Origin: Escherichia phage 121Q
DNA length: 64,000 nt
Sequence record: NC_025447.1
Direction: 5' to 3' (one strand)
The notes below the pieces were generated by a model. That model had not been told where the DNA came from. It was given only the letters and a program-made list of their open reading frames with translations, and did no database searches. Every line of letters starts with the position of its first letter. Position 1 is the first letter of the stretch. A program made the translations under genes and the position numbers. Positions 13,655 to 61,766 of this stretch are shown one piece after another.

Positions 13655-13684
13655 TGTAGACAAACCGTAAGAATGTGATATAAT
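13655..13684 (+). promoter_or_regulatory. Sigma70-type promoter candidate for the ClpA-like gene
   Basis: TTGTAGAC -35-like element, 17-nt spacer, TGATATAAT with TATAAT at 13679-13684. Confidence 0.4.
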
Positions 13685-13724
13685 GTTTATTAATTAGAGT
13701 GACGTGAATCACATAGGAGAATAC

Positions 13725-16013
13725 ATGAATCTTACTCAATTGTTCAAAAAAAGCGACGAACTGGCAACATCTCTAGGTCATACATTCTTGACTATTGACC
13801 ACGTAAGTGCCACAGTACTGACTATTGATAGCATCAAGAACGTATTTGAAGATATGAACATTGATGCAGACAAACTGCACAACCGCCTGATGAACTATCT
13901 TAAAAATACAACAGTTCCACATGCACCAAAAAGTGTTAAAGATGAAGACGCGAATCGAACTTCACTTCTAGTGAATCGCGTTGTACATGAGCTTTCTAAA
14001 AAATCAGTCATTGAACAACTAAAAAGTGATGATTTTTCGATTGATGCATATTTTGTTCTATTCGAATGTCTGTCTTTCCCTAACACAGCACTAGAAGCTG
14101 CGTTAAAAGAAGAAGGTGTTAGCTGTACTGAAGCTGCACGTGCATTACAGAAACACGTTGAGTCACTTGATAAGGGTATCAACTTACAAAGTATTAATGA
14201 CGAACCGATTGGAGATAAAAAAGTGGCCCAACAGCAGCAATCATCTAAACAAAAAGGTTTGGAAGACTATACAACGAATCTAACTGCTCTTGCAAAAGAA
14301 GGCAAACTAGATCCTATGATTGGTCGCCAGAAAGAATTGTCTGCATTGATTGAGACTCTTGCTCGCAAAACCAAAAAGAATGCTATTCTCACTGGTGAAG
14401 CTGGTGTAGGTAAAACACAAATCATCGACGGGCTTGCACAAGCTATTGCTGATGGTAACGTACCTGAACACCTGAAAGACGTTGAAATTCTTTCACTAAA
14501 TGTTGGTGCATTGACTGCTGGTACTAAGTATCGTGGTGAATTTGAAGAACGCATCGACAATTTGCTAAAAGAACTAAAGAAACGTGAAAATACTATTGTT
14601 TTCATTGATGAAATTCATATTATGGTTGGGGCTGGTTCCGCAAGTAATGGTTCTATGGACATGAGCAATATGCTTAAGCCAGCACTTTCACGTGGTGAGA
14701 TTCGTGTAATTGGTGCAACAACATATGATGAATATCGTAAAAATATCGAGAAAGATAGTGCATTAACTCGTCGTTTTATGAAAATTGACGTAGTTGAGCC
14801 GACAATTGATGAAACTCGTGCAATTGTTAATGGTTTGAAACCAACGTATGAAAAATTCCATAATGTTGAGTTCACATCTGATGCAATGGATGCTGTAATT
14901 TCTCTCAGTGATAAATTCCTGAAGAATAAGCACTTCCCAGATAAAGCAATTGATCTAATGGATGCTGCTGCGGCTAAAGTTCGTTCACGTGACAACAATA
15001 GTAAGCTAATTACTGCCAATTTGATTCAAGAAGTTGTTGCTGGTATTGCCAATTTGGATATCAACGTGGTTGCATGTACTGAAAGTGATCGTATGCGTAA
15101 TCTACCAGATGCACTACGCTCACGTGTATACGGTCAAGAGGAAGCTATTCAAAAATTAGTTGATAACGTGATGGTAGCTCGTGCAGGACTGCGTGACAAA
15201 TCTAGTGTTCAGGGTGCATTTATGTTTGTTGGACCATCTGGTACTGGTAAAACAGAAATTACCAAAGCATTAGCAGACGCAACTGGTGCGGAACTCATTC
15301 GCTTTGATATGTCAGAATTTTCTCAAGAACATACTGTTTCTAAACTAATTGGTTCACCTCCAGGTTATGTTGGTCATGATTCTGGTAACGGTTTACTGTT
15401 GGATAAAATTGAGCAGTTCCCTAATGCAGTACTGTTACTTGATGAAATTGAAAAAGCAGATCGTAAAGTACTACTAACCTTCCTACAGGTTTTGGATGAA
15501 GGTCGTCTGACTGGTTCTCAAGGTAAAACTGTATATTTTAATAACGTAACTGTTATTATGACTACAAACCTTGGTGCGGCTGATTCAACAAAGCGTAGCA
15601 TTGGTATGAGCGGTAGTGACACTGCACAGGACAAGGCAATTAAAGCATTCTTGCCACCAGAGTTTATTAACCGTATTGATAGTATCGTTACGTTTAAAGA
15701 CCTAAGCAGTGAAGCTATTGACAGCATCATTGATAAGTTCATGGGTGGTTTGAATGAACAAGTCAAAGACCGTAATGTTAAAGTTACATTAACAAAAGCT
15801 GCACGTGAATGGCTTGCGAAAAATGGGGTAAAAGTTGGTATGGGTGCACGTCCAATGAAACGTACCATTGAACAAAACATTCGTGTGCCACTAGCTAAAG
15901 AAATGTTGTGTGGTTCACTTGTGAATGGTGGTAACATTACATTTGATGTTATTGATGGTAAAATCGGTATTAAGCCGAAACGTACCAAAGCTGTAGATAA
16001 AGCACTAGTATAA
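13725..16013 (+). CDS. ClpA-like AAA+ unfoldase (two nucleotide-binding domains, ClpP-docking-type IGM loop)
   Basis: Walker [10 protein letters not shown] (domain 1) and GPSGTGKTE (domain 2); Walker B FIDEIH and LLLDEIEKA; segment [10 protein letters not shown]...[20 protein letters not shown] resembles the E. coli ClpA IGL-loop region. Start moved to the ATG at 13725 (AGGAGA 5 nt upstream); the ORF-track start is a GTG. Confidence 0.85.
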
Positions 16014-16049
16014 AAAAAGAAAAGGAGAGCATAATGCTCTCCTTTTTTT
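16012..16049. terminator. Bidirectional rho-independent terminator
   Basis: Stem GGAGAGC/GCTCTCC (16024-16042) flanked by A-run and T-run, between the convergent ClpA-like and giant genes. Confidence 0.65.
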
Positions 16050-16050
16050 A

Positions 16051-19000
16051 TTACTTAACTAATAATATATTTTTAATATCATTACCACTAACTTGTAGAC
16101 TATCAGTGTATACTGAAAGATCTATAGTGTAACTATTTTGTGTGTAACGTTTTAACATATCATAATTACCTAAATTAATTCCATTGAAAGAATATGTAGT
16201 ATTAAGTTTAAAATCATGTTCTGCACTATACATTACACCACGGAGTAAATTATTTGCATTTCTAACTTCAACTTTTTCATATCCAATCGATATAATATCA
16301 TTCATGTTTGCGGCTGAACCGGATAAAACATTATTTCTAATACTATAAGGACTTATTGATTTAGGTTGAGAAACATAGGTTGTATTTTCTTCACTAATGG
16401 TTGTGATGTTAGTAACAGTACCACCAACAACACCGATATACATACCGTCAACCATTGGGAATCCATAAACCCATATCCCTTCATTATTTCTAAACGGTTG
16501 AATAACACTTGAATCATATTCGATAACGTTGATTTCTAAACTATCAGTCATTTTAGTTCTTGCCAATTCACTAAGAACTCCCGCACCCGTAATTGGTAAG
16601 TTATAACCGTTATCGATAGTAATTCCATCAACATCAAATATTTCATTAGAGATTATCCAAACGTCAACGTCATCTGGTGTTATTCCGTCATTGTACTTAC
16701 CACCATTTAAAGTAGTATCGTAGAAAACATCATAATTAATTACATCAATGGTGTAATTTCTATTTTGTTCATACAATTTAATACCATTCTTGACAAATTC
16801 AGGGTCAGCAAATGTTCTAACACGAACAATGTTCAATGCTAGAGGCTGTACTGGCTCATTTTGTTGTGCAAGAGTGATGTTATCATAACGGAGAACTGCA
16901 CCAGTACTCTCATCAATCAATTCAATCGTTTCCTTACCTGTATTTCTTACAGTGAATAGGATCGGAGTTGTATTGTTTTTGATGTTAGATACACGCAAGA
17001 TTGTTTCCCATGTGTGATTTTGATATCTCACAAAATCTTCACCATCAGGAGTGAAAATCATCACCTTATCACCATCAGATAGGTCATTGTCAACTATTTC
17101 TGCTTCAGTTAAGCTATTAATAGATCTCACACGATAGAAATATTTTTCATCAAACTTCGATGTTGTTTTATTAATATCATTTTCAATCTTAGCATATGAA
17201 GGAATACTTACAATTGCTTCTGTATGTTTATATGGATTGATAATTGCCATACCTTCAGTTTGATATCTGCTGTTATCACGTAATTGTACAAGAGATACAT
17301 TGTCAAACCCATATCCATCAACTGTAAATCTAATTTGACCTACATCACGCCCAGAAGGGTTTATGTCAGATATATCCACAATATAAGGATCAACTTCATC
17401 ATCTTTAACTTCCCATTTTATTGAAGAAGTTTGAGATTCCAATGCTAGGTTATCAAATGCATTCATATCATTGAAGTACTTAGCTTCAGTAATACTATCA
17501 AGTATATATTGATAATCAGAATACATTGGATTATTTTGATCTAGTGGTAAATCATCAAGATTTATTTCAGCTAGTTCAACCATTTCACCATTTGTGATAA
17601 AATAATCTTCCATGAAATCATCAATACTTTGTTCATCAGGTATACTTTGATATACACCGTTAACATTTAAGTAAACATATTTTCGTGGAATCATTGTAAT
17701 TGCATAGATATCAATTGGGGTCTTACTAAGAATCTCTTCAGCTTTTTCGTACTTATCAGTAGCGTCTTTGTCGAATAACCCTCTCATACCTGCTAATACG
17801 TGAATAGCATCAGTATAGAAACGGGTATCACCACCTACTTCATCATAACGATAAACATATACACCATACTCAACTTCAAGTTTAACTTTTACTTCATAGT
17901 CTGATGCGTCAGGATTTTTATCTTTAATTAATGAAATGTATTTTTGATACAATTCACTGCTTATTTCAAAATATCCATAGTTATAATCATTACTAGAAGA
18001 AAAGCCTAATGGAAGTCTAGTACTAGGATTGTCATTATAAGTAAGTCCACTAAATCCACATCCAACTTCATCGTGAATTTTCTCATCACTTATATCTTTA
18101 TAAAGTTTCAAACGGTTTGCCAATGTGTTATACTGAACATATTGTCTAAGGTCAGTAAACATATCGTTATGCGTTGATTCTTTATAAACACGTTCCAATG
18201 TAGCAGTGAATTCATCAGTTGCTTCTAAATCTTCCGCATGGTCTTTATACCACTGGTTAACGCCATATGCTGTTCCTAGTGTTACATCCAATTCTGGATA
18301 GTAGATTTGCATTTGATAAGCAATAAGAAGATCGAAAGTTTCTTCACTATATTCTGGGAAAGAATATATATAACGTTGTAATTCATAGTTACTAACAGCA
18401 TCCTTTTCATTGGATTGATATTTGTTATTAACACTTACTAATTCATTTATGCTTGCCAAATCTTCATTTGGTTTACACTGAATATTATCATAATGCATAA
18501 TAATATCAATTTCTTGGAATCTTCTATTTGGTGTAACGAAATCACTTGGTAGTGAACCTACCTGTTCCCATTTTTGGGTAATTTCATTAAATTGAGCGTA
18601 CTCATAATCCCAAATATCTTTTTCAGTTTTGATCCAAGAACCGTCAACGAAAATATATCCATTAGGATCTAAATCATTACATAGACCTTTTATTAAATCA
18701 TCATCAGATGTCTTTTGCTCTATTTGTGAACGAATTTTAGTTCTATAAGGTTTAACTTCTTCAAAATATTCAACAATTTGATTAATCAAATTATCGTTTG
18801 AATAGTTTTGAACTAATGATTGTTCCAAACCAACAATATAGATATATGATGTTTTAAATACCCAATCCACAACACTTTGTTCAACATGTACATATTTGAC
18901 CATATCAAAAACAATTTCGCTTTGATGTAAATCGAAAGAATTTTTGAGTAAAGCTAGTGCTTTACGAACGTTGATTTCACGATTGCTTAGTGATCCATTA

Positions 19001-22000
19001 TCATTATGAACACTATAATCTGCGTAAAGCATATCATTGAGTTCAACTGTACTGTTTTCACGACCAATCGCTTTCCAATAAATTGAATCGCGTGATTGTG
19101 ATTTAATATACAATGTCCAAATGTTTTCACTATCGGTAACTCTGATAATATCGCCAACTTGGTAGTTTTTAGTATTAGCATCTTCTAAGCTTGACTCTTG
19201 TGTATAAGTCGTGTTACTATCATACCCAACATCATACCAATCAGCATATGACCAGTACTGAGTCATGTCCAATGAAGTTCCCAGTGATTCAACATAATCA
19301 GATTGTTTAATCATTTTATGTTGACCCTCACCTTTGTTCTCTAACGTTATAGTAACAACACTACCCGCGTTTGCTGGACTATTCATTAACTGAATATATC
19401 CATTTTCGTCGAAGTGAATAAAATAAACAGCACTAGAAGTTAATGGATTTGGTAGATATCCACTAGTACTTAAAATAACAGCGTCATTTTCTTTAAATTT
19501 ATCACTTTCAACTGCAATAACTAATTCATTATTGTAAGACAATACACGGAAAGAAACTTCATTCGGATTAACTTCAGTGGTTTTAACATTAAACACATCT
19601 TCCATAACAACACTATTAGTGGTTATGTTTTGTGACCTATAATAATTATTAGCACTTTCTACAAAGTTTCTACGAGCTTCTATAACATTTTGGAACCAAG
19701 TTTTGTTTGAACCTAAACCGTTATCAACATCTGGATATAATAAATTAATCACAGAACCTGATTCAGTTGTTTCTTGACCAATTAGTGAGTTCCACATTGA
19801 ATCCCAAATTAGTGGGTTAAAGTTATAGCTGTCACCTTCTTTACATAGTTGATACTGGTCATGTTTAACAACTTCAGTACTATCCATGTAATAAGAAACA
19901 GTTAAAATACTGGTATCATCATTCACTTTAAATTGCATATTACTAAGAATAAACGAGTTTTCATTGATTGGAGCGAACCAAGGAATGTTTAGCTGTGTTG
20001 GATCTTTAATAATACGAGCAATGTCAGTACATGATTTTGTTCTGGTATGTAGTGGTGGTACATAAATTGTATCACGTACCCAGAAATAGTATTTTGTCAC
20101 ATAACTATCAGTTGAACTATCATATTCCAAAAATGTACTATAATTATCTTCAAGTGCAGTTCCACTTGGTAGATACATAGTATTATTTTTGTTTTTCTTA
20201 GCAACATCTTTACAGTATTTGTCCCAGTTATATGGCTCAACTGGTGAACAAACCCACTCTAACACATCAATTGTACTATGTGGTAATAAACGACCCCAGT
20301 TGTAACGTTTGTATTCATTGGTTGCATCAATATCAACATTACCGTCTGCGTCATAAATTGCACGAGTATAATCCAAATAAAATGCAGTGCTAGTGTTCCA
20401 CCATACTTGACCAACTTTATCAGCACCCCAAGCCTGGATTAACTCTCCATTACTATTATACTGTGCAGGATCAACTGGTGAAGTATATGTTACGTTTTGC
20501 ATAGCCGCACCTGGAATAACACCATTAATTGGGTCATAAACGTTTAGATATAGCTCAGTAATGTTAGTACGTTCATCATATGTCGTTGGACGATCAAATA
20601 AAGTACTTTGTGGTGCTTTAAAACTATATTTCTTGTCAATGTAAGCTTGACGTTCATCAGTACTGGCAAAACGTGATACATAACGATACAAACGTGGACG
20701 TGTATCTGGATCAGTAAATTCAATATCAATAGAAGTGTCAAATGGAACTACCATAACTTTAGGATCAGAACCAGCAGTATAATATTGACTTTCTACTGTT
20801 AAAGTATCTGGCATAAAGTTAGTTTCATCAACAAAATAATAATAATCACCATCTTCAAGTGGTACATTATCAGTTAAAGTTACTTTACAAAATTGTTCAG
20901 CATACACATCGGTATTTTCAATAGGTGTTATAGAAACCATTTGCACATTAGTATCAACCAATTCAAAAATGTTCCACAAACCATTACCGTCTTTAAACAT
21001 CCACACAGATTCAGGATTTTCACCTTTACCATTAGTATAAGTTATGCGGTCATTATATGCAGTACTGAAATCTTTTGTTGTGTACGATACTTCATCCAAT
21101 GTTACTGGACCAATATCTGGAAGTTGGATGTTTTCACTTCTTCCACTACGCATTGGGAATGAGAACTTACCATTTGGACGTGTAATCCAACGAGGATCTT
21201 TACCCTGCTCACCGAAGTATACAATATGATTACCATTACCATTTGAAGTTGCATTTACATCAAAAGAAACCATTTGAGGTTGTTGTTTAAATTGGTCATT
21301 GATTAGTTTAAATTGAAGGTTTTTCTTACCATCAATATTACCATATGTACCAATTTTAAATGCCCATTCTTGTAATGCTTTATATTCATCAGTGTCATAT
21401 GATTTAGAAACACGAAGTACACGTTCTAAAACTTGGTTAGTACCTTTATCGTGAATGAATCCTTTATAGAAATCAACACGACTAACATCACTGCTAATCA
21501 TACGCTGTAGATAATCACGAGATTGATAACCAATCAAATGGTTTGACAACTCTTGTAATTGTACATCACTTACTGGAGTTTCACTATCATAATAATGTTG
21601 GAAATCCGACACTAATTTTTCAAATGATGGTAGTGTTCCAGCTTCCAAGATAATAAATCCAGGAGCTTGTAGGCGACCAGTCCATGAACCAGTAATATAT
21701 CCATACATTTTAATTAGTTCTTGAATAGAACCATATGTTGGCTGATAAATGTAATCACCAAAAATAGTTTTATCATCAAAAATAACAGCATGTTCATATG
21801 AACACAAACTTAAACGAATCAATGCAATGCGTTTATTAGATTCTAAAGTTCTAACAGTGAAGATATTTCCAATACGAGAAGTTTCAATTTCATATTGGCG
21901 AATACCTTGGTTATTATCATCAAGTAATGACCATACACCACCATTATTTTGCGTAATAGATTGTACTGAACCAAAGTCTGCCCCAAATTTAGCGTTTGCA

Positions 22001-25000
22001 GCACTTGGGGTACAAGAAATAAATTCACCAGTTACTAGAGAATTCTGACTCCAGATCACGAAATCTTTAGCAATAGTGTTCCAATCTTGTTGAGCACCAC
22101 TATCATTTACATCTTCAAAAATCCAACCATGTTCTTTAAGATATTCACCATATCCACAAATAAAAGTATAAACTTCTTGGTAACTATTGAAAACTTTACC
22201 ATATTCAATTGAAGCTTCAGACTTCCATTCATTATAATGAACAACATTACGGTTTTCCAATTTAAGAGTTACTTTTCTACCATTTTTTACGGGAAGTTTA
22301 TATTTAAATTTAGCACCAACTAGATCATATCCATCAATCTGATATGCACTACCATTCCAAGTAATTTTGATCGCACTCATTTGCTCATCACGGATATTAT
22401 TAGAACGAACAAGACCAATGGTTTGGTTTTCTTGTGAAATAAGACCGAAAGATTTAGCATTGAATGTTAGCTGATCTGCTTTAGTAAATCCTCCAATTTT
22501 ATGACCAACATTTATATAAGAAGAACGAACTACATCCCCATACTTGGTGGTAATATTTTTATTTTGATACATCAAATGGTCACTTACAAACATTTGATAA
22601 CCAATTGTTCTTGTGCTATTTTCACCATGAACTACTGTATTTTTATCAAAATTAATACGCTTACGTGTATCACCATAAAGGAATTGTGAACCATCAGTGA
22701 ATACTTCTTTTAAGTTATCATTGCGGGTATCCCAGAAATAGTTAGCAAATTGTGCTGGTTTAGCTTTATACAAAAGCATCATTTGGTCATATGCAAACAA
22801 TGTAGTGTTCATGTATGTAAATTCCATGTCACCCATATCACCATATGTCCAAGGTTCTGCTCTATGATTTAAAGATCCAGACACTAAACCTAAAATTTCA
22901 GGTGCAATATATTCAACCACACAAATATCAATACCAGAAGATGTTTTATTTCCAGTTTTTGTAATTTTGAATGGCTGTACACCAAATCTTTTATATTTGT
23001 CATATTGACCACGACGATCACCAAATAAAATAGTTCCAGTACTGCTATCGCCAATAGTTCCGTCAATATCCCAAAGACCACTAGGAACTAAATCACCTTG
23101 CTCATTCATAACAAGTGCTTCATATACATATACAACATCACTATCACGTTCACCAACTTGAACAGCCGTTGGTTCGTATTCTTGGTTCCACCAAGTTGGA
23201 CGTTGTGTAAAGCCAAACATTTCCCACGGATGGGTAGCTGGGCGATATGTACCATATTGGTCAGTGTAAATGGCACGCCATGAACCACGTGCAGGAATTT
23301 CAGTACTTTGACCATTAACTACATAATAAGTGCCAGTATAGTTCCAAGTTCTCCAATTGTTAGGATCATAATCATGTGTACTATTACTGATACCATTAGT
23401 TGCGGTGAAGTTAATGTATCCACGTAGTAATAATGTTTGTTTCTCTTCAGCACTATATTCAGTTTTAGTGAAATATGGTGTAGGGAAAAGGTCATCACTA
23501 TTCAATACTGGTACGTAATCAACATCTTTGAATTTATTATCAATACTATTAAAAATTCTATTTTCTAATTCATATACAACATCATCCATTTTATCAACAC
23601 CATTGATAACACGGTATGCTTTGGAAATAATACCAGTATGACTGATGTTATAACAGCTTGGTTTACTACCAGCAGTGAGGAATGTCGCTTTTTCTGGTAC
23701 ATATGCTTGAAGAATACCTAAGAACTGTGGTGTTGGTGGTATAAATGCACGAATGAATCCAGAAGTACTTCCAACATTATCATAATAGAATGGGAATGAA
23801 CTATCACGTCCCATATTAATAGTAGTTAAAATTGCATCAACAATGTTTGCAGCACTATTTTGTAAAAAGTCTGATGGATTTTCATCATACATACGAAGCA
23901 TTTGTGTATTAAATTTATTAATGAATCTAAAATATTCAGATTGCATAAACATAGTTGCTTCAAATAAATCAATATCTTCATTTGCAGTATGTGCCATCAA
24001 TGGAAGCATAGATGCTTCATTTTGGATAATTTTAGTACCTACGCCATTATTAACCAATCCTTTAGCCAAACGTTCTTCATAGTCATTGAAATCATCAGAA
24101 GAACCACGTGTAATGTTCTTTTGAATAATATCCTGAAAATGTAAAGTGTAGTCACCTTGGTTAATGTATATAATATTGGAATTGTATGGGTTATTTTGTA
24201 AGTTAATTGGAACTTCATATGCACCTAATTCTTTATTAGGAGTTACAGTACTGCTATAAGTTCTAATTTGAATAACTGAATCTTCATCCAAATCTACAGT
24301 GCTATCTAAGGTGATACTTTGAACTTGACCTTTTGATACATTTTTGGTATATTTTGATACATCAACACCATCAACAACAACTTCAATTATGTCAGAATCA
24401 TTATCTAAAACTTTTTGTGCTAATTCGAATGTGTGGTCATATTTTACAATCTGAACACCATCACCAGTGATTGGATGCCAGTCTAGATAAGTTTCGCGGT
24501 CTGCTTTATAGTACTGATAGGTTCTATCAACTTCAATAACATATGCATACATACCATCAACTGGTTCTTTAAAAACTTCCATATCATAAACAGTACTGAA
24601 TACACGATACATATCAGTACGTTTGACTTGTGGAGTTTGTTTTACAAATTGTTTAGAGTACTCTTCTGAACGAACCCAATCGGTTTGAAGATTCATTTCA
24701 TTATTTTCATCAATAATGTTATAATAGTATAAACCATCAATTTCAACTTCTTTTCCAAGATGGTCATAGGTATAACGTTGGGATTGTAAAAAGTTTTCAT
24801 AAATGTAATAATTATAATCACCAAGTTCAATGTTATATCCATATACACTATCAGTTGCATAGTTGTAATTTATTTTAAAACCAAACAACTCTGAACCTTT
24901 AAAGTTACTGGATGGATATGTAGTACTGTTGTCAAGTTTGATACCATTACGATCATAAAGTTGGAATTTAGGGAATATGTTAACACTAGTTTTTGATTGT

Positions 25001-26052
25001 GCACGAACCCACAAAGAACCATTCCAGTACATAGAACTGTTACCATACTCATTACCTTTGGTGATTAGAACAACATCACCATCTTGAGGTTCACCACTTG
25101 GGCGTGATTCGGTTTCTTCTTCTGGATCTAATGCCAAACCATAAACACGAGTACCATCCTGCATTTTTTTGACATATACATTATAAATTCTATTATTTTC
25201 ACCATTGTTACCAATACTGGTGAATAGAATACGCATACCATCTTGTGGAATAATACCATCAATACGGATGCCACTATTAATATCTTTTTGTACGATATCT
25301 TCAGGTTTGATTATATCTGAGAATAGATCGACAGTTCCACGGAATTTTGTACCGTAGTTAATTAGTTCAATATTTTTATTATATTCGATAATTGGAGCAC
25401 GGGCACGAATAAAGCGAGAATCTTGCATTAATTCTTCAGTTAAAATTGAACCATCTTCTAAAGTTTCACCTAAAGTATACCAAAAGTTTTGTAGTGACCA
25501 TGTATTACCATTAAGTGCACCACGTTCCATTACAATGTAATCAGGTGAAGTAATATTATAAGAGTTTTTAGTATCCCAAAGATATGAGCTAAAATTGTTC
25601 ATTTTATTTGGGTTAATAGCTGGAGTCCATGCATAAAACTTACCGTTGAACAAACGGCTTTCATTATCGGTTAGTGCTCCATAATGATTCATGTATCCAA
25701 CTAGATCATCATAAAATTGAATTGAACGAATTGTCGAATCATCATTTTTTGAGACGTAAGCAGTGGACAACTGATAAAGTTGACGTGCTACAGTACTTTC
25801 ATGTAAGAAGATATTACCAGCAGCGGCAGGAGAACCCATATCACCAATATAGCCGTCAACTAATTCGTTTTCAGCCGGATTAAACCATTGTTGAATAACA
25901 TCATCACTGACTTTTTGAATATCTTCTAAGCCTTGCATCCACTCAGGCAATCTTTTAATAAAAAGCTTCTTCTGTACTGCTTCAGCCATCTGTGTAGGTT
26001 GAAACTTAAAATTATTAGTCATTTTTGGACTCCATATAATTCGTTCATTCAT
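16051..26052 (-). CDS. Giant virion structural protein (3333 aa), probably baseplate or fiber associated
   Basis: Uninterrupted 10-kb ORF directly downstream of the gpJ/gp6-like gene in the same operon; no enzymatic motif recognised. Start is ambiguous: ATG at 26052 has no Shine-Dalgarno, the in-frame ATG at 26022 has GGAG upstream. Confidence 0.6.
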   Translation of the reverse strand: MNERIIWSPKMTNNFKFQPTQMAEAVQKKLFIKRLPEWMQGLEDIQKVSDDVIQQWFNPAENELVDGYIGDMGSPAAAGNIFLHESTVARQLYQLSTAYVSKNDDSTIRSIQFYDDLVGYMNHYGALTDNESRLFNGKFYAWTPAINPNKMNNFSSYLWDTKNSYNITSPDYIVMERGALNGNTWSLQNFWYTLGETLEDGSILTEELMQDSRFIRARAPIIEYNKNIELINYGTKFRGTVDLFSDIIKPEDIVQKDINSGIRIDGIIPQDGMRILFTSIGNNGENNRIYNVYVKKMQDGTRVYGLALDPEEETESRPSGEPQDGDVVLITKGNEYGNSSMYWNGSLWVRAQSKTSVNIFPKFQLYDRNGIKLDNSTTYPSSNFKGSELFGFKINYNYATDSVYGYNIELGDYNYYIYENFLQSQRYTYDHLGKEVEIDGLYYYNIIDENNEMNLQTDWVRSEEYSKQFVKQTPQVKRTDMYRVFSTVYDMEVFKEPVDGMYAYVIEVDRTYQYYKADRETYLDWHPITGDGVQIVKYDHTFELAQKVLDNDSDIIEVVVDGVDVSKYTKNVSKGQVQSITLDSTVDLDEDSVIQIRTYSSTVTPNKELGAYEVPINLQNNPYNSNIIYINQGDYTLHFQDIIQKNITRGSSDDFNDYEERLAKGLVNNGVGTKIIQNEASMLPLMAHTANEDIDLFEATMFMQSEYFRFINKFNTQMLRMYDENPSDFLQNSAANIVDAILTTINMGRDSSFPFYYDNVGSTSGFIRAFIPPTPQFLGILQAYVPEKATFLTAGSKPSCYNISHTGIISKAYRVINGVDKMDDVVYELENRIFNSIDNKFKDVDYVPVLNSDDLFPTPYFTKTEYSAEEKQTLLLRGYINFTATNGISNSTHDYDPNNWRTWNYTGTYYVVNGQSTEIPARGSWRAIYTDQYGTYRPATHPWEMFGFTQRPTWWNQEYEPTAVQVGERDSDVVYVYEALVMNEQGDLVPSGLWDIDGTIGDSSTGTILFGDRRGQYDKYKRFGVQPFKITKTGNKTSSGIDICVVEYIAPEILGLVSGSLNHRAEPWTYGDMGDMEFTYMNTTLFAYDQMMLLYKAKPAQFANYFWDTRNDNLKEVFTDGSQFLYGDTRKRINFDKNTVVHGENSTRTIGYQMFVSDHLMYQNKNITTKYGDVVRSSYINVGHKIGGFTKADQLTFNAKSFGLISQENQTIGLVRSNNIRDEQMSAIKITWNGSAYQIDGYDLVGAKFKYKLPVKNGRKVTLKLENRNVVHYNEWKSEASIEYGKVFNSYQEVYTFICGYGEYLKEHGWIFEDVNDSGAQQDWNTIAKDFVIWSQNSLVTGEFISCTPSAANAKFGADFGSVQSITQNNGGVWSLLDDNNQGIRQYEIETSRIGNIFTVRTLESNKRIALIRLSLCSYEHAVIFDDKTIFGDYIYQPTYGSIQELIKMYGYITGSWTGRLQAPGFIILEAGTLPSFEKLVSDFQHYYDSETPVSDVQLQELSNHLIGYQSRDYLQRMISSDVSRVDFYKGFIHDKGTNQVLERVLRVSKSYDTDEYKALQEWAFKIGTYGNIDGKKNLQFKLINDQFKQQPQMVSFDVNATSNGNGNHIVYFGEQGKDPRWITRPNGKFSFPMRSGRSENIQLPDIGPVTLDEVSYTTKDFSTAYNDRITYTNGKGENPESVWMFKDGNGLWNIFELVDTNVQMVSITPIENTDVYAEQFCKVTLTDNVPLEDGDYYYFVDETNFMPDTLTVESQYYTAGSDPKVMVVPFDTSIDIEFTDPDTRPRLYRYVSRFASTDERQAYIDKKYSFKAPQSTLFDRPTTYDERTNITELYLNVYDPINGVIPGAAMQNVTYTSPVDPAQYNSNGELIQAWGADKVGQVWWNTSTAFYLDYTRAIYDADGNVDIDATNEYKRYNWGRLLPHSTIDVLEWVCSPVEPYNWDKYCKDVAKKNKNNTMYLPSGTALEDNYSTFLEYDSSTDSYVTKYYFWVRDTIYVPPLHTRTKSCTDIARIIKDPTQLNIPWFAPINENSFILSNMQFKVNDDTSILTVSYYMDSTEVVKHDQYQLCKEGDSYNFNPLIWDSMWNSLIGQETTESGSVINLLYPDVDNGLGSNKTWFQNVIEARRNFVESANNYYRSQNITTNSVVMEDVFNVKTTEVNPNEVSFRVLSYNNELVIAVESDKFKENDAVILSTSGYLPNPLTSSAVYFIHFDENGYIQLMNSPANAGSVVTITLENKGEGQHKMIKQSDYVESLGTSLDMTQYWSYADWYDVGYDSNTTYTQESSLEDANTKNYQVGDIIRVTDSENIWTLYIKSQSRDSIYWKAIGRENSTVELNDMLYADYSVHNDNGSLSNREINVRKALALLKNSFDLHQSEIVFDMVKYVHVEQSVVDWVFKTSYIYIVGLEQSLVQNYSNDNLINQIVEYFEEVKPYRTKIRSQIEQKTSDDDLIKGLCNDLDPNGYIFVDGSWIKTEKDIWDYEYAQFNEITQKWEQVGSLPSDFVTPNRRFQEIDIIMHYDNIQCKPNEDLASINELVSVNNKYQSNEKDAVSNYELQRYIYSFPEYSEETFDLLIAYQMQIYYPELDVTLGTAYGVNQWYKDHAEDLEATDEFTATLERVYKESTHNDMFTDLRQYVQYNTLANRLKLYKDISDEKIHDEVGCGFSGLTYNDNPSTRLPLGFSSSNDYNYGYFEISSELYQKYISLIKDKNPDASDYEVKVKLEVEYGVYVYRYDEVGGDTRFYTDAIHVLAGMRGLFDKDATDKYEKAEEILSKTPIDIYAITMIPRKYVYLNVNGVYQSIPDEQSIDDFMEDYFITNGEMVELAEINLDDLPLDQNNPMYSDYQYILDSITEAKYFNDMNAFDNLALESQTSSIKWEVKDDEVDPYIVDISDINPSGRDVGQIRFTVDGYGFDNVSLVQLRDNSRYQTEGMAIINPYKHTEAIVSIPSYAKIENDINKTTSKFDEKYFYRVRSINSLTEAEIVDNDLSDGDKVMIFTPDGEDFVRYQNHTWETILRVSNIKNNTTPILFTVRNTGKETIELIDESTGAVLRYDNITLAQQNEPVQPLALNIVRVRTFADPEFVKNGIKLYEQNRNYTIDVINYDVFYDTTLNGGKYNDGITPDDVDVWIISNEIFDVDGITIDNGYNLPITGAGVLSELARTKMTDSLEINVIEYDSSVIQPFRNNEGIWVYGFPMVDGMYIGVVGGTVTNITTISEENTTYVSQPKSISPYSIRNNVLSGSAANMNDIISIGYEKVEVRNANNLLRGVMYSAEHDFKLNTTYSFNGINLGNYDMLKRYTQNSYTIDLSVYTDSLQVSGNDIKNILLVK

Positions 26053-29567: not shown

Positions 29568-30332
29568 TTAATCCTTTAATAATATGTTAAAATTATCATA
29601 AAAGTACTTTTTTAGTACCGAAATATAGTCTTCATTATACTTCAATCGAAGTAAATTTATTCCATTCTCGGTGCAGTACGTGTTTTTAATTTTATCATTG
29701 TGTTGAGTTTGTTTTAGTGATTTTGTTCCACCCCAATGCTCTGAACATTGAAAATGTTGTTCACCATCATATTCGATACACAAGTTTAAATCTTCAATAT
29801 AAAAATCAAATGGCAATGTTAAAATATTCTTACAATTATCAAATCTCTTTTCTCTAACATATTTAAATGAAGATAATATATTTTCTATATCTGATACTGC
29901 CTTGGATTGAGTACTATCTCTCATACATTTTTCACACCCGTATCTACTATTCAAGTGATTATCAGGTCGCTGGTAGAATATACCATGTATTGGACAAATT
30001 ATTGATATATGTGTTTTATTATTAACATAATTAGCCATACTATAATCAAATTTATTTTTAAATTTAAAATTGGCTTTTTTCTTGAAATTTAAAAAATTAT
30101 GTGGACTTTTTTGCCTATTTGTATTATATTCAATAGAACATTTCATGCATCCTTTGCCACATGTATGGTCATTTGGTGTTTGTAGAAAAAATCCATGTTT
30201 TGCACAGCCAATCCATACTTTTGTTTTAGCATTATGATATTTAACCATACTATAGTCATATCGTATACCATGAACTTTTATCGCATTGGTTACAAATTTA
30301 TATTTTGTCGATCTAGTGGTTGCATATTTCAT
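29568..30332 (-). CDS. Homing-endonuclease-like protein: two zinc-ribbon repeats plus C-terminal PD-(D/E)XK-like motif
   Basis: 254 aa; repeats KVWIGCAKHGFFLQTPNDHTCGKGCMKC and HISIICPIHGIFYQRPDNHLNSRYGCEKC; C-terminal FDFYIEDLNLCIEYDGEQH. Inserted between baseplate genes. Confidence 0.5.
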   Translation of the reverse strand: MKYATTRSTKYKFVTNAIKVHGIRYDYSMVKYHNAKTKVWIGCAKHGFFLQTPNDHTCGKGCMKCSIEYNTNRQKSPHNFLNFKKKANFKFKNKFDYSMANYVNNKTHISIICPIHGIFYQRPDNHLNSRYGCEKCMRDSTQSKAVSDIENILSSFKYVREKRFDNCKNILTLPFDFYIEDLNLCIEYDGEQHFQCSEHWGGTKSLKQTQHNDKIKNTYCTENGINLLRLKYNEDYISVLKKYFYDNFNILLKD

Positions 30333-30367
30333 ACATCACTCCATGATTTATATAGAAATATTTATTC

Positions 30368-42102: not shown

Positions 42103-42557
42103 TGTAGTAATGACAATCCTGTTGAATGCAGAAATGCATATAAATTAGAACCTGATCCTATCGAAAATGTAGATGGCAGATGAGCAGTTCAACAGTGCGA
42201 TGAGCAAAAGAAACCCGTTAGATGTGGGCATAGTTTGAACCCCTCACGGCAATGCGGCTCAATAAAGAACTCCGATAAGCATACAGAGAGTTCCTCGATA
42301 GACATATAAGGATCGCACCTTACCAGATTTGCTAAGGGAGTTTATTAAGTGATTTTAATAAACAGCCTGAAGTTTGATTGTATAGACTTTCAGGTGAGTG
42401 TCAGGATGATTAAGACTGACGACCGTTGCACATGACTGCGATAGAGAGAAACAGAGCAACCCGCTTTCGTTCTTAATATATTTTTAAGAAATTCGCAATA
42501 CAATAAATGCTGAAACCATCAGCGTCAAGAAATAGAGACTTCATTGTCTCTTTTTTA
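42103..42557 (+). ncRNA. Candidate structured non-coding RNA (~450 nt), function unknown
   Basis: Bracketed by the promoter at 42068-42096 and the terminator at 42534-42557; no ORF of 60 aa or more on either strand; visibly more GC-rich than its surroundings; several local hairpins (CCTGAA/TTCAGG, GTCAG/CTGAC, GTTGC/GCAAC, CCTTA/TAAGG). No tRNA T-loop signature found. Confidence 0.4.
42534..42557 (+). terminator. Rho-independent terminator
   Basis: AGAGAC-TTCATT-GTCTCT followed by TTTTTT. Confidence 0.6.
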
Positions 42558-52360: not shown

Positions 52361-52434
52361 TATTAAAAAACCCTTTACACAATGTTCTGGAATGTATATA
52401 ATACGCACATACACGAAAATAAAGAGACAAAATT

Positions 52435-53532
52435 ATGCCAAACGTAAGTATCAACAAAGAAGAGTTTATCAGCAAAATGACTGCTAAGTATGGTGAATTT
52501 GATTTCAGTACTTTAGTATTCAAAGCAAGTAAAACAACTGTGAAATGTAACAAGTGTGGAAAAGAAAACATAAAATCTGCACTTCGTCACATTGCATGTA
52601 CATGTGCATCATGTTATTCAAACATGTCGCAACGTTCAAACAACGACACATTCATCAGCACGGTAGAAAATAAATTTGGTAAAGATAAATTCAAATTTGA
52701 TAAACTAAATTACACTAACGCTATAACAAAAGTAACACTCTTTTGCACTGATGAAGAGCACAACGATTACTTTGAAATAACACCAAACAAATTTCTTTCT
52801 GGTAAGGGATGTCCTGTGTGTAATAAAAATGAAGCATACAGTACTGAATCATTCACTGCAAAAGTAAAAGAAAACTATGGTGATGCATTGGATTTGACAA
52901 ATACTGTTTATGTCAATCAGAAAACTAAAGTAACGGTTCATTGCACAAAAGGACATCACGACTGGACAGTAGATCCAAAAACTTTAATCGTCGGTAAAAC
53001 TGGCTGTGGTACATGCTCTGGTAAAGGTGGACGAAGTACTGAGCGTTTCATTGAACTAGTATCACCAATTCATAACCATAAGTATGATTATAGCTTGGTG
53101 GATTATACAACAAGTGAGAAGTATGTGGATATTGTGTGTCCGACGCATGGTGTTTTTTCCCAACAACCAAAAGCACATATGGCGGGTAAAGGATGTCCAT
53201 CATGTGGTGAATATGGATATCAACCATCAAAACCTGGATATTTCTATGTTCAAAAACTAACTAACAATGACAAGACGGTGTACAAATATGGAATCACTGG
53301 TGATATGAAACGCCGTGTAAACGAACAAAGTCGTAATTCTGGGTTCGAACATGAAGTACTAGTAGAACGCTACTTTGAAGATGGAAATCAACCATTACTG
53401 TTGGAAAAGTTCATAAAGAAATACATTGAAAGTGGAGTAGTAAGTACTGAAGAGTTGCCGTCAGGATTTACTGAAACGTTTGATGAAAAGTATCTAAAAT
53501 CTGTACTGGAAATTGTAAATAACTTTAAGTAA
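52435..53532 (+). CDS. Homing-endonuclease-like protein: three zinc-ribbon repeats plus C-terminal GIY-YIG/T5orf172-like domain
   Basis: 365 aa; repeats ...CTDEEHNDYFEITPNKFLSGKGCPVC, ...CTKGHHDWTVDPKTLIVGKTGCGTC, ...CPTHGVFSQQPKAHMAGKGCPSC; C-terminal GYFYVQKLTNNDKTVYKYGITGDMKRRVNEQ. Confidence 0.5.
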   Translation: MPNVSINKEEFISKMTAKYGEFDFSTLVFKASKTTVKCNKCGKENIKSALRHIACTCASCYSNMSQRSNNDTFISTVENKFGKDKFKFDKLNYTNAITKVTLFCTDEEHNDYFEITPNKFLSGKGCPVCNKNEAYSTESFTAKVKENYGDALDLTNTVYVNQKTKVTVHCTKGHHDWTVDPKTLIVGKTGCGTCSGKGGRSTERFIELVSPIHNHKYDYSLVDYTTSEKYVDIVCPTHGVFSQQPKAHMAGKGCPSCGEYGYQPSKPGYFYVQKLTNNDKTVYKYGITGDMKRRVNEQSRNSGFEHEVLVERYFEDGNQPLLLEKFIKKYIESGVVSTEELPSGFTETFDEKYLKSVLEIVNNFK

Positions 53533-53546
53533 ACAATCTAAAGGAG

Positions 53547-53906
53547 TTGACACGGATGTTAACTGTATACAAATTTAATAGAGAAGAGTACTTAAAGAGT
53601 CAGTACTCAAACATAGAAATAAATGTTCCTTATGGGACATTAGTTGGTTATGATGAATCCACCGAAACTTTATATTATAATGATGATAGATTGGATTATA
53701 GTTTAGATTCTTTTATAGAAGATATACTAAACACACATACTGAAGATATGTTATATGAAGAATACATAGATCATTATAGGGAACGTATGTCACAATTACA
53801 CTCGGACGCTCCAGTACTAAACATTACACAAGAACCTTCTGAATTTCAGCCCCATAATCCTTTTCAACGTTTAATAGATATTGGTTTGAAATTCACTATT
53901 AGTTGA
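53547..53906 (+). CDS. Hypothetical protein
   Basis: 119-aa ORF with GGAG ribosome-binding site inside the endonuclease island. Confidence 0.35.
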   Translation: MTRMLTVYKFNREEYLKSQYSNIEINVPYGTLVGYDESTETLYYNDDRLDYSLDSFIEDILNTHTEDMLYEEYIDHYRERMSQLHSDAPVLNITQEPSEFQPHNPFQRLIDIGLKFTIS

Positions 53907-61258: not shown

Positions 61259-61465
61259 ATGCCATTATATACATATCGTTGTGAAAAAGAAGAATGCAAA
61301 CATAGCATGGAAAAAATTGTTAAAATTGCAAACCGTGATGAACCTCATGATTGTCCTAAATGTAATGGTGAAAAAACTATGAAGTTGGAAGTATTCACTC
61401 CAGGTGATAAGGGTGCTAATCTTTATTTCCGTGGAAAATGGTTTGCAAATACTGGAGGTTACTAA
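61259..61465 (+). CDS. Zinc-ribbon protein (FmdB-like)
   Basis: 68 aa; MPLYTYRCEKEEC ... CPKCNG gives two CxxC pairs. Confidence 0.5.
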   Translation: MPLYTYRCEKEECKHSMEKIVKIANRDEPHDCPKCNGEKTMKLEVFTPGDKGANLYFRGKWFANTGGY

Positions 61466-61466
61466 T

Positions 61467-61766
61467 ATGAAAATTAAAATGATTAATGATTACGTTCTTG
61501 TTCGACAAATTGAAGCACAGAATAAAAGTACTGGTGGTATTATTCTAGGTAATGTTGAACCACCATGTATTGGGATGGTAATTTCCGTTGGTCCAGGTAA
61601 AATTCTTCCGAACGGACAACTTGCAGAACATAATATTAAAGAAGGTGATATGGTTGTGTTTGGTCGTTCATCTTTGAACACACCTCTGACTGAAGATCTT
61701 GGTGGTGGTGAAGATACATATTATGTAATGAAAATCGAAGAGATTTTTGGTAAGAAAAATGGCTAA
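61467..61766 (+). CDS. GroES-like co-chaperonin (Cpn10)
   Basis: MKIKMINDYVLVRQIEAQNKSTGGIILGN...GMVISVGPGKILPNGQ...IKEGDMVVF parallels E. coli GroES ([25 protein letters not shown]...GEVLAVGNGRILENGE...VKVGDIVIF). Start set to the ATG at 61467 (GGAGG upstream). Confidence 0.75.
   Translation: MKIKMINDYVLVRQIEAQNKSTGGIILGNVEPPCIGMVISVGPGKILPNGQLAEHNIKEGDMVVFGRSSLNTPLTEDLGGGEDTYYVMKIEEIFGKKNG

Follow-up and report, generated by a model that had tools for sequence, protein, structure and literature searches.

Introduction

In Escherichia coli, the IGL loop by which ClpA docks onto ClpP is laid out as a coil between two helices (bioRxiv 10.1101/820209). Docking of this kind tolerates little change. 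In E. coli ClpX, the I268L and F270L substitutions and alterations of the loop length severely weaken the docking to ClpP (Fei et al., PMC7112951), and the R192K mutation of ClpP severely impairs it (PMC7112951). Among bacteriophages, ClpA has been described as conserved in the RaK2-like phages (PMC6102473), and Iyer et al. counted ClpA, ClpX, ClpP, and ClpS among the accessories of jumbo phages (PMC7824862). In the paper that describes the genome of the Asteriusvirus phage fEgEco12, Clp is not mentioned. Here, we analyzed a 64,000-nucleotide stretch of the genome of Escherichia phage 121Q (NC_025447.1), hereafter referred to as the window, with a focus on the gene at positions 13725..16013 (+ strand). 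This gene encodes a ClpA-type AAA+ unfoldase of 762 residues, from the ATG at 13725 to the TAA at 16011-16013. The gene itself is not new, since it has been deposited and annotated, and Clp genes of jumbo phages have been noted in comparative papers. We assign a probability of about one half to the reading that this open reading frame (ORF) encodes the ATPase (unfoldase) of a Clp protease system specified by the phage itself, which would be a conserved core module of the RaK2-like jumbo phages.

Phage setting and overall architecture

The window is 98.5–99% identical at the nucleotide level to the Escherichia phages JP4, phAPEC6, SP27, SHEFM2K, and PBECO4, which belong to the genus Asteriusvirus, a group of RaK2-like jumbo phages of approximately 350 kb, and it corresponds to the region from 284.7 to 346.8 kb of PBECO4. 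The GenBank records delimit the same coding sequence of 2289 nucleotides, and its product shows 100% identity with PBECO4 gp539 and phAPEC6 gp246c, both of which are already annotated as ClpA. The RaK2 record also notes a likeness to a ClpA-like protein. With relatives this close, in which the gene carries the ClpA annotation, the canonical T4 gene set, to which the original prediction had compared the protein, is beside the point as a yardstick. Orthologs that are at least 53% identical occur throughout the RaK2-like group. Those of PBECO4 (gp539), phAPEC6 (gp246c), RaK2 (ORF069), GAP32, CBB, and XaC1 represent the same gene in the same position and orientation, with identities of 100% for PBECO4 and phAPEC6, 75% for RaK2, and 53.5% for XaC1. 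A word-indexed search yielded 114 protein clusters at 54–100% identity, many of them from contigs about 350 kb in length, followed by a gap down to 45%. This gap between the clusters at 54% or more and the relatives at 45% suggests that the ClpA clade is old and phage-specific, rather than the product of a recent capture from a host.

The best match among the solved structures is E. coli ClpA (1ksf/6w1z; E = 2e-180 by phmmer, residues 17–741 of the query against 20–734 of ClpA). The two proteins share 41.6% identity overall (N domain, 19%; D1, 51.5%; D2, 46.1%). The best-scoring NCBIfam model is TIGR02639, the ClpA model, with 754.7 bits and an E-value of 1e-226 in an alignment that starts at residue 3. 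In the Pfam search, AAA and AAA_lid_9 matched D1, while AAA_2 and ClpB_D2-small matched D2. Every feature named in the original prediction, including both Walker A motifs, was found at the position given there. These family and motif similarities are far beyond chance.

The D1 module extends over 14259..15044 (+) and contains the Walker A motif GEAGVGKT (residues 224–231; 14394-14417), the pore loop KYRG (residues 268–271; 14526-14537), and the Walker B motif IVFIDEIH (residues 291–298; 14595-14618). The D2 module follows at 15045..15959 (+), with the Walker A motif GPSGTGKT (residues 503–510; 15231-15254), the pore loop GYVG (residues 547–550; 15363-15374), and the Walker B motif (residues 569–578; 15429-15458), and includes the D2-small domain at 15702-15941 (+). 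In an alignment of 150 sequences, Lys230 and Thr231 of D1 are at least 90% conserved, and Asp295, Glu296, Arg270, Gly271, Arg349, and Arg350 are invariant. In D2, Gly503, Gly506, Gly508, Lys509, Asp573, Glu574, Asn615, Arg650, and Arg709 are invariant. The residues for ATP binding, ATP hydrolysis, and substrate gripping are thus invariant or nearly so across this alignment, and each module has an arginine finger and an aromatic pore loop in addition to its Walker A and B motifs.

The N-terminal domain at 13725..14174 (+; residues 1–150) is of the Clp_N type and is divergent. When the isolated N-terminus was searched against Pfam, the first Clp_N repeat matched at residues 11–59 above the cutoff (E = 3e-5), while the same search returned no match for a second repeat. 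The Clp-type N-terminal region of the original prediction is thereby supported for repeat 1, but repeat 2 is unmatched, and the domain shares little sequence with its counterpart in E. coli ClpA.

The AlphaFold2 (AF2) model has a mean predicted local distance difference test score (pLDDT) of 89.1. The N domain is modeled as all-helical, with pLDDT values mostly of 84–97, and is followed by a disordered linker at residues 160–173. The model superposes on the ClpA protomers of ClpAP complexes; for 7uiv_E, the template modeling score normalized to the target length is 0.90, with a root-mean-square deviation of 3.3 Å and 48% sequence identity. The phage protein shares with E. coli ClpA the domain order N, D1, D2, and D2-small and the location of the docking loop, and in each of the two rings the Walker motifs (A and B), the pore loop, and the catalytic residues agree. 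A middle coiled-coil domain between D1 and D2 is absent, as judged from the collinear alignment with ClpA and from the AF2 model, which contains no additional coiled coil. The lengths agree with this arrangement: the phage protein has 762 residues and ClpA 758, while ClpB is about 100 residues longer. The D1 and D2 modules of ClpB/Hsp104 and ClpC are homologous to those of the phage protein (E-values of 1e-145 to 1e-152) and have similar folds. However, the alignments to ClpB, ClpC, and Hsp104 break into two stretches, owing to the middle coiled-coil domain that only these proteins possess. ClpB also lacks a ClpP-docking loop, whereas the phage protein has a loop homologous to the IGL loop. 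These features characterize the protein as an intact two-ring ClpA-type AAA+ protein, in agreement with the original description of a full-length ClpA-type unfoldase, and we consider it almost certain that it is an active unfoldase of this type.

A decaying or nonfunctional relic of a captured host clpA would be compatible with the low identity of the N domain and with NCBIfam scores that fall under the equivalog cutoffs. This explanation is very improbable, however, since dozens of phages, down to 53% identity, possess the ORF undamaged and at full length, its catalytic and pore-loop residues are preserved as described above, and the AF2 model is confident. As described below, the gene is also equipped with a promoter, a Shine-Dalgarno site, and a terminator of its own. 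Furthermore, identity falls to 45% for the closest sequence from outside the phage clade, implying that selection has retained the gene for a long time.

Phage-encoded ClpP and ClpS-like proteins

The original prediction saw no ClpP gene in the window. A tblastn search of the window confirmed that neither ClpP nor ClpS is encoded there (best E > 2), but the genomes of these phages encode both a ClpP (PBECO4 gp105) and a ClpS-like protein (PBECO4 gp457) elsewhere. The ClpP of PBECO4, gp105, is a protein of 231 residues encoded at 72185-72880 (−) of NC_027364.1, outside the region that corresponds to the window. It matches Pfam CLP_protease over its full length (E = 4e-41) and is 35.6% identical to E. 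coli ClpP. Its catalytic triad consists of Ser113, His139, and Asp188, and the Ser-His-Asp triad is invariant in all 67 phage-clade ClpPs. These ClpPs also share a conserved C-terminal extension of 17 residues, which directly follows the pocket-forming C-terminal strand and has the consensus ExG[KQ][YL]xV[KL]RRxGxx[ED]W[VI] throughout the RaK2-like clade. The RefSeq label of gp105, "head maturation protease", derives from the name of PHROG family 94. A role as the prohead protease was rejected, as for that function these phages have another gene, whose product is of the T4 gp21 type and is labeled "prohead core scaffold and protease" (phAPEC6 gp227c, PBECO4 gp520).

The ClpS-fold adaptor homolog of PBECO4, gp457, comprises 181 residues and is encoded at 249684-250229 (−), likewise outside the window region. 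It matches Pfam ClpS with 24.7 bits (E = 2e-5; cutoff, 23), and the profile of its family matches ten ClpS sequences in the PDB, with a best E-value of 4e-8. The protein consists of a ClpS core flanked by conserved N- and C-terminal extensions, and its RefSeq label is "ATP-dependent protease". In E. coli ClpS, Asn34, Asp36, His66, and Met40 bind the N-degron. The corresponding residues of gp457 are Asp, Pro, Asn, and Ala, respectively, and these changes are conserved within the clade.

The ClpA region, the ClpS-like gene, and the ClpP gene are found in 69, 70, and about 70 records of the phage collection searched, respectively, from phages of the same nine host genera. It is therefore highly probable that ClpA is part of a conserved phage set of ClpA, ClpP, and ClpS-like proteins. 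Since the phage encodes an intact ClpP and a ClpS-like protein, a host partner is unnecessary, and the hijacking of a host protease is not the simplest reading.

Other candidates for members of a Clp or HslUV system were sought in the PBECO4 genome. No ClpX was found; the only match was to ClpA itself, through weak AAA+ similarity. As ClpX/HslU-type partners, the "AAA family ATPase" gp484 was rejected as a DnaB-like helicase, and gp010 as a weak MoxR-type AAA protein. Two putative peptidases, gp096 and gp097 (67372-67965 and 68293-68901, both −), are encoded 4–5 kb from ClpP. The former is HslV-like, with a PHROG 1040 match, a weak tblastn similarity to E. coli HslV (E = 0.018), and no Pfam match; no HslU partner for it was found in the PBECO4 genome. 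The latter matches CLP_protease weakly (E = 0.004), and its N-terminus resembles a signal peptide. In Escherichia phage CMSTMSU (MH494197.1), the ClpA gene is split into five pieces and the ClpP gene into two, reflecting either sequencing errors or a real decay of both genes in a single lineage.

The docking loop and its tripeptide

The helix-loop-helix segment homologous to the ClpA IGL loop is encoded at 15579..15650 (+; residues 619–642), with the IGM tripeptide at 15600-15608 (residues 626–628). The phmmer alignment places this segment column for column on the "rkSIGLihqd" segment of E. coli ClpA, in line with the position assigned to IGM in the original prediction. In the AF2 model, residues 619–622 and 634–642 form helices and the intervening residues 623–633 form a coil, so that the tripeptide is predicted to reside in a loop with the same layout as in E. 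coli ClpA, which does not fit the refuting case set out in the original prediction. The pLDDT drops at residues 621–630 to a mean of 71, as compared with 92–93 in the preceding block and 88–94 in the following one. The phage loop differs from that of E. coli ClpA in having IGM instead of IGL, in being two residues shorter, and in a tripeptide that is not conserved within its own clade. The full-length ClpA proteins of the PA5oct-like Wroclawvirus phages and of Agrobacterium phage Atu_ph07, which are 38–41% identical to the phage protein and whose genomes also encode ClpP, retain the canonical IGF and a loop of the E. coli length, unlike the ClpA of the window. Their ClpPs are 46–64% identical to E. 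coli ClpP, in contrast to the 35.6% of the RaK2-like ClpP.

IGM lies outside the strict docking consensus [LIV]-G-[FL], and it occurs in only one of the 136 relatives outside the phage clade. These 136 sequences, each less than 50% identical to the query, are cluster representatives and presumably cellular. Their tripeptide is nearly always [ILV]-G-F, with IGF in 75, LGF in 15, and VGF in 10 of them. In the phage clade, the tripeptides include IGM (16), MGM (16), IGV (11), LGM (9), IGA (9), LGL (8), MSM (8), VGF (6), IGG (5), and MNM (5), and IGF, MGF, TGM, IAG, TAI, and LGH are also present. The RaK2-like orthologs listed above differ from the protein of the window in no material way except for the tripeptide: LGL is found in a lineage of 85% identity, IGV in RaK2, and VGF in XaC1, while MNM occurs in the SE_PL/7t3 cluster and MSM in a lineage of 68% identity that is likely of the Hallingskeid type.

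The variability was quantified as the entropy at each tripeptide position. In the phage clade (69 sequences, less than 95% identical), the entropies at positions 1, 2, and 3 are 2.01, 0.97, and 2.39 bits, corresponding to the 88th, 58th, and 93rd percentiles of the D1–D2 core, which has a mean of 0.88 bits. For the 136 distant relatives, the three positions give 1.78, 0.13, and 0.93 bits (50th, 8th, and 26th percentiles; core mean, 1.81 bits). The less diverged phage clade thus varies far more at the docking tip than the distant set.

The pocket residues of ClpP were taken from Lopez et al. (bioRxiv 10.1101/820209). In the phage-clade ClpPs, the positions of Tyr62, Ile90, Met92, and Phe112 remain hydrophobic. 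Phe82 is replaced by Asn or Ser in 55 of the 67 sequences, Leu114 by Gly in 63, and Tyr60 by Thr in 58. All three positions are altered in gp105, in which Phe82, Leu114, and Tyr60 are replaced by Ser, Gly, and Thr, respectively.

Host ClpP pockets, on the other hand, are highly conserved and near-invariant. A tripeptide that is not fixed in the phage clade, facing near-invariant pockets in the hosts, is contrary to the expectation for an obligatory docking onto host ClpP. Such docking was envisaged in the original prediction, by which hexamers of the phage ClpA would engage E. coli ClpP through the IGM loops and redirect host proteolysis. IGM occupies the exact position of IGL, its Met is, in our assessment, a bulky hydrophobic residue of about the same size as the Leu at this position of E. 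coli ClpA, and the predicted flexible coil between two helices resembles that of ClpA; host ClpP is also abundant at the moment of infection. Nevertheless, the phage has an intact ClpP of its own, with an altered pocket, as well as a ClpS-like protein, and the tripeptide differs greatly among the phages, whereas the relatives outside the clade keep [ILV]-G-F and almost never carry IGM. In E. coli ClpX, even conservative changes in the tripeptide or the loop length cripple the docking to ClpP (PMC7112951), and the phage loop is shorter by two residues. Taken together, these observations weaken the proposal, and the use of host ClpP as the partner is unlikely.

The same variability could also reflect an unfoldase or chaperone that acts independently of any ClpP, for example by helping the very large tail and baseplate proteins of the neighboring genes to fold or assemble. 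The tripeptide looks relaxed, in that the hydrophobic-Gly-hydrophobic pattern is missing from one third of the clade, and 13 of the 69 phage-clade sequences have Ser, Asn, or Ala in place of the Gly. E. coli ClpA alone is well established as a chaperone acting on P1 RepA. Iyer et al. have proposed that the ClpA and ClpX of jumbo phages take part in translocation or in the assembly of virions (PMC7824862). On the other hand, position 1 of the tripeptide is Ile, Leu, Met, or Val in 66 of the 69 sequences and position 3 is mostly hydrophobic, and ClpA is strictly accompanied by an intact ClpP and the ClpS-like adaptor. The genomic position of the gene bears on this explanation as well.

Gene organization and expression signals

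A Shine-Dalgarno sequence, AGGAG, was read at 13714..13718 (+), 6 nucleotides ahead of the ATG at 13725; the in-frame GTG upstream at 13704 has no such sequence. A putative sigma70-like promoter at 13657..13684 (+) consists of TAGACA, a 16-nucleotide spacer, and a TG-extended TATAAT, matching 11 of the 12 consensus positions. This promoter, proposed on the consensus match only, lies within an intergenic gap of 98 bp, 40 nucleotides upstream of the ATG, and sigma70-like hexamers are also found upstream of the RaK2 and XaC1 orthologs. Downstream of the gene, a palindromic GC-rich hairpin with a 12-bp stem and flanking A and T runs, AAAAGGAGAGCA-TAA-TGCTCTCCTTTTTTT, forms a predicted bidirectional intrinsic terminator at 16020..16046, common to the ClpA gene and the convergent gene of a 3333-residue virion protein. 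The ClpA gene thus appears to be a monocistronic unit with its own sigma70-like promoter, Shine-Dalgarno site, and terminator.

The convergent 3333-residue ORF (16051-26052, −) retains its adjacency to the ClpA gene in RaK2 and XaC1, and its phAPEC6 ortholog, gp245 (382 kDa), was identified as a virion protein by mass spectrometry. From PBECO4 through RaK2 to XaC1, the ClpA gene has kept its position between genes for virion proteins of about 500 and about 3300 residues, which favors an assembly chaperone. However, it lies on the strand opposite to the flanking late structural genes, an arrangement shared with RaK2 and XaC1, and its sigma70-like promoter sets it outside the late operons. In addition, phAPEC6 gp246c, which is 100% identical to the ClpA of the window, is missing from the mass-spectrometric inventory of 62 virion proteins, a list that includes its neighbors gp244, gp245, and gp248. 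A ClpP-independent unfoldase or chaperone is therefore doubtful. The ClpA protein is probably an intracellular, nonstructural protein that is produced by the host RNA polymerase before late transcription. A literature search found no transcriptome of an Asteriusvirus.

Other features of the window

Two further ORFs in the window resemble free-standing insertions of the homing-endonuclease type. The first, of 254 residues (29568-30332, −), has a DUF723 match and a weak, nuclease-like DUF2726 match. The second, of 365 residues (52435-53532, +), has a treble-clef zinc finger, a DUF723 match, and a weak match to T5orf172, which is GIY-YIG-like. They are located in the stretches 29580-30345 and 52362-53555, respectively, both of which are missing from PBECO4. 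One of the two ORFs lies between the baseplate-wedge and gp25-like genes, and the other lies just after the major head protein gene. A 209-bp stretch at 42144-42349 is a dispersed repeat, with a second copy of 84.7% identity at 93929-94133 of PBECO4, far outside the syntenic region.

A GroES-type co-chaperonin is annotated by RefSeq at about 61430-61760 (+) of the window, as located from PBECO4 gp507 (286924-287259), and an "Hsp70 heat shock protein", gp015, which has no Pfam match, is annotated elsewhere in the genome. Along with the Clp genes, these annotations suggest that the phage carries several proteostasis factors.

Discussion

In the reading that we favor, the ClpA-type protein is the unfoldase subunit of a Clp proteolytic system encoded by the phage itself. 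Its hexamers would form inside the infected cell, and substrates would be recognized by the divergent N domain, possibly with the help of the ClpS-like protein. The substrates would then be unfolded, threaded through the D1 and D2 pores, and most likely passed into the ClpP of the phage. Docking would take place through the IGM loop, at an interface that may have diverged on both sides from the cellular pair of [ILV]-G-[FL] and the ClpP pocket. The purpose is likely to be the controlled degradation of proteins of the host or of the phage, or quality control of the proteome, during the long infection by a jumbo phage. That the physical partner of the phage ClpA is the phage ClpP is plausible, at a confidence slightly below that of the reading as a whole.

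Several observations weigh against this reading. About one third of the phage-clade clusters have tripeptides without the hydrophobic-Gly-hydrophobic pattern (IGA, IGG, MNM, MSM, IAG, and TAI), yet keep ClpP; the missing pattern could mean that docking has been lost rather than re-tuned. On the ClpP side, an Arg equivalent to Arg192, which is essential for the binding of E. coli ClpX, is present in only about 60% of the phage ClpPs in a motif-anchored reading, and the pocket of the phage ClpPs shows no clear excess of variability over a small cellular comparison set. No clear covariation between tripeptide and pocket residues was detected among 11 ClpA–ClpP pairs, which had been matched through the name of the phage or the length of the contig. 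The ClpA and ClpP genes are about 83–87 kb apart, and the three Clp genes are dispersed rather than organized in an operon. With regard to the family assignment, the TIGR02639 score of 754.7 bits is below the curated equivalog cutoff of 993.15, and the NF008263 score of 654.6 bits is below the curated cutoff of 1350. ClpA is thus the best-scoring NCBIfam family, yet the protein is not an equivalog by the rule of NCBI. Finally, the searchable literature yielded no physical or genetic work on the ClpA, ClpP, or ClpS-like proteins of these phages.

A more specific and tentative proposal is that the RaK2-like phages carry an orthogonal ClpA–ClpP pair, in which the docking interface has co-diverged on both sides. 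From the sequence comparisons, the ClpA side of such a pair would be marked by the shortened loop and the variable tip, usually of the form hydrophobic-Gly-Met. The ClpP side would be marked by the replacement of Phe82 by Asn or Ser, the replacement of Leu114 by Gly, and the clade-specific extension of 17 residues beside the pocket. We present the orthogonal pair as a hypothesis, because no convincing covariation between loop and pocket was seen in the few pairs compared.

If the proposal is true, then the phage protease would be insulated from the ClpA, ClpX, and ClpP of the host, and the phage would possess a private degradation pathway with a ClpS-like adaptor. The comparison exposes the question of why the RaK2-like jumbo phages keep a private trio of ClpA, ClpP, and ClpS-like proteins, and whether its unusual docking interface gives this trio independence from the host Clp network. 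Should the trio be independent, it would represent a natural, insulated AAA+ protease pair and offer a way to study how the proteome of the host, or that of the phage, is remodeled by jumbo phages.

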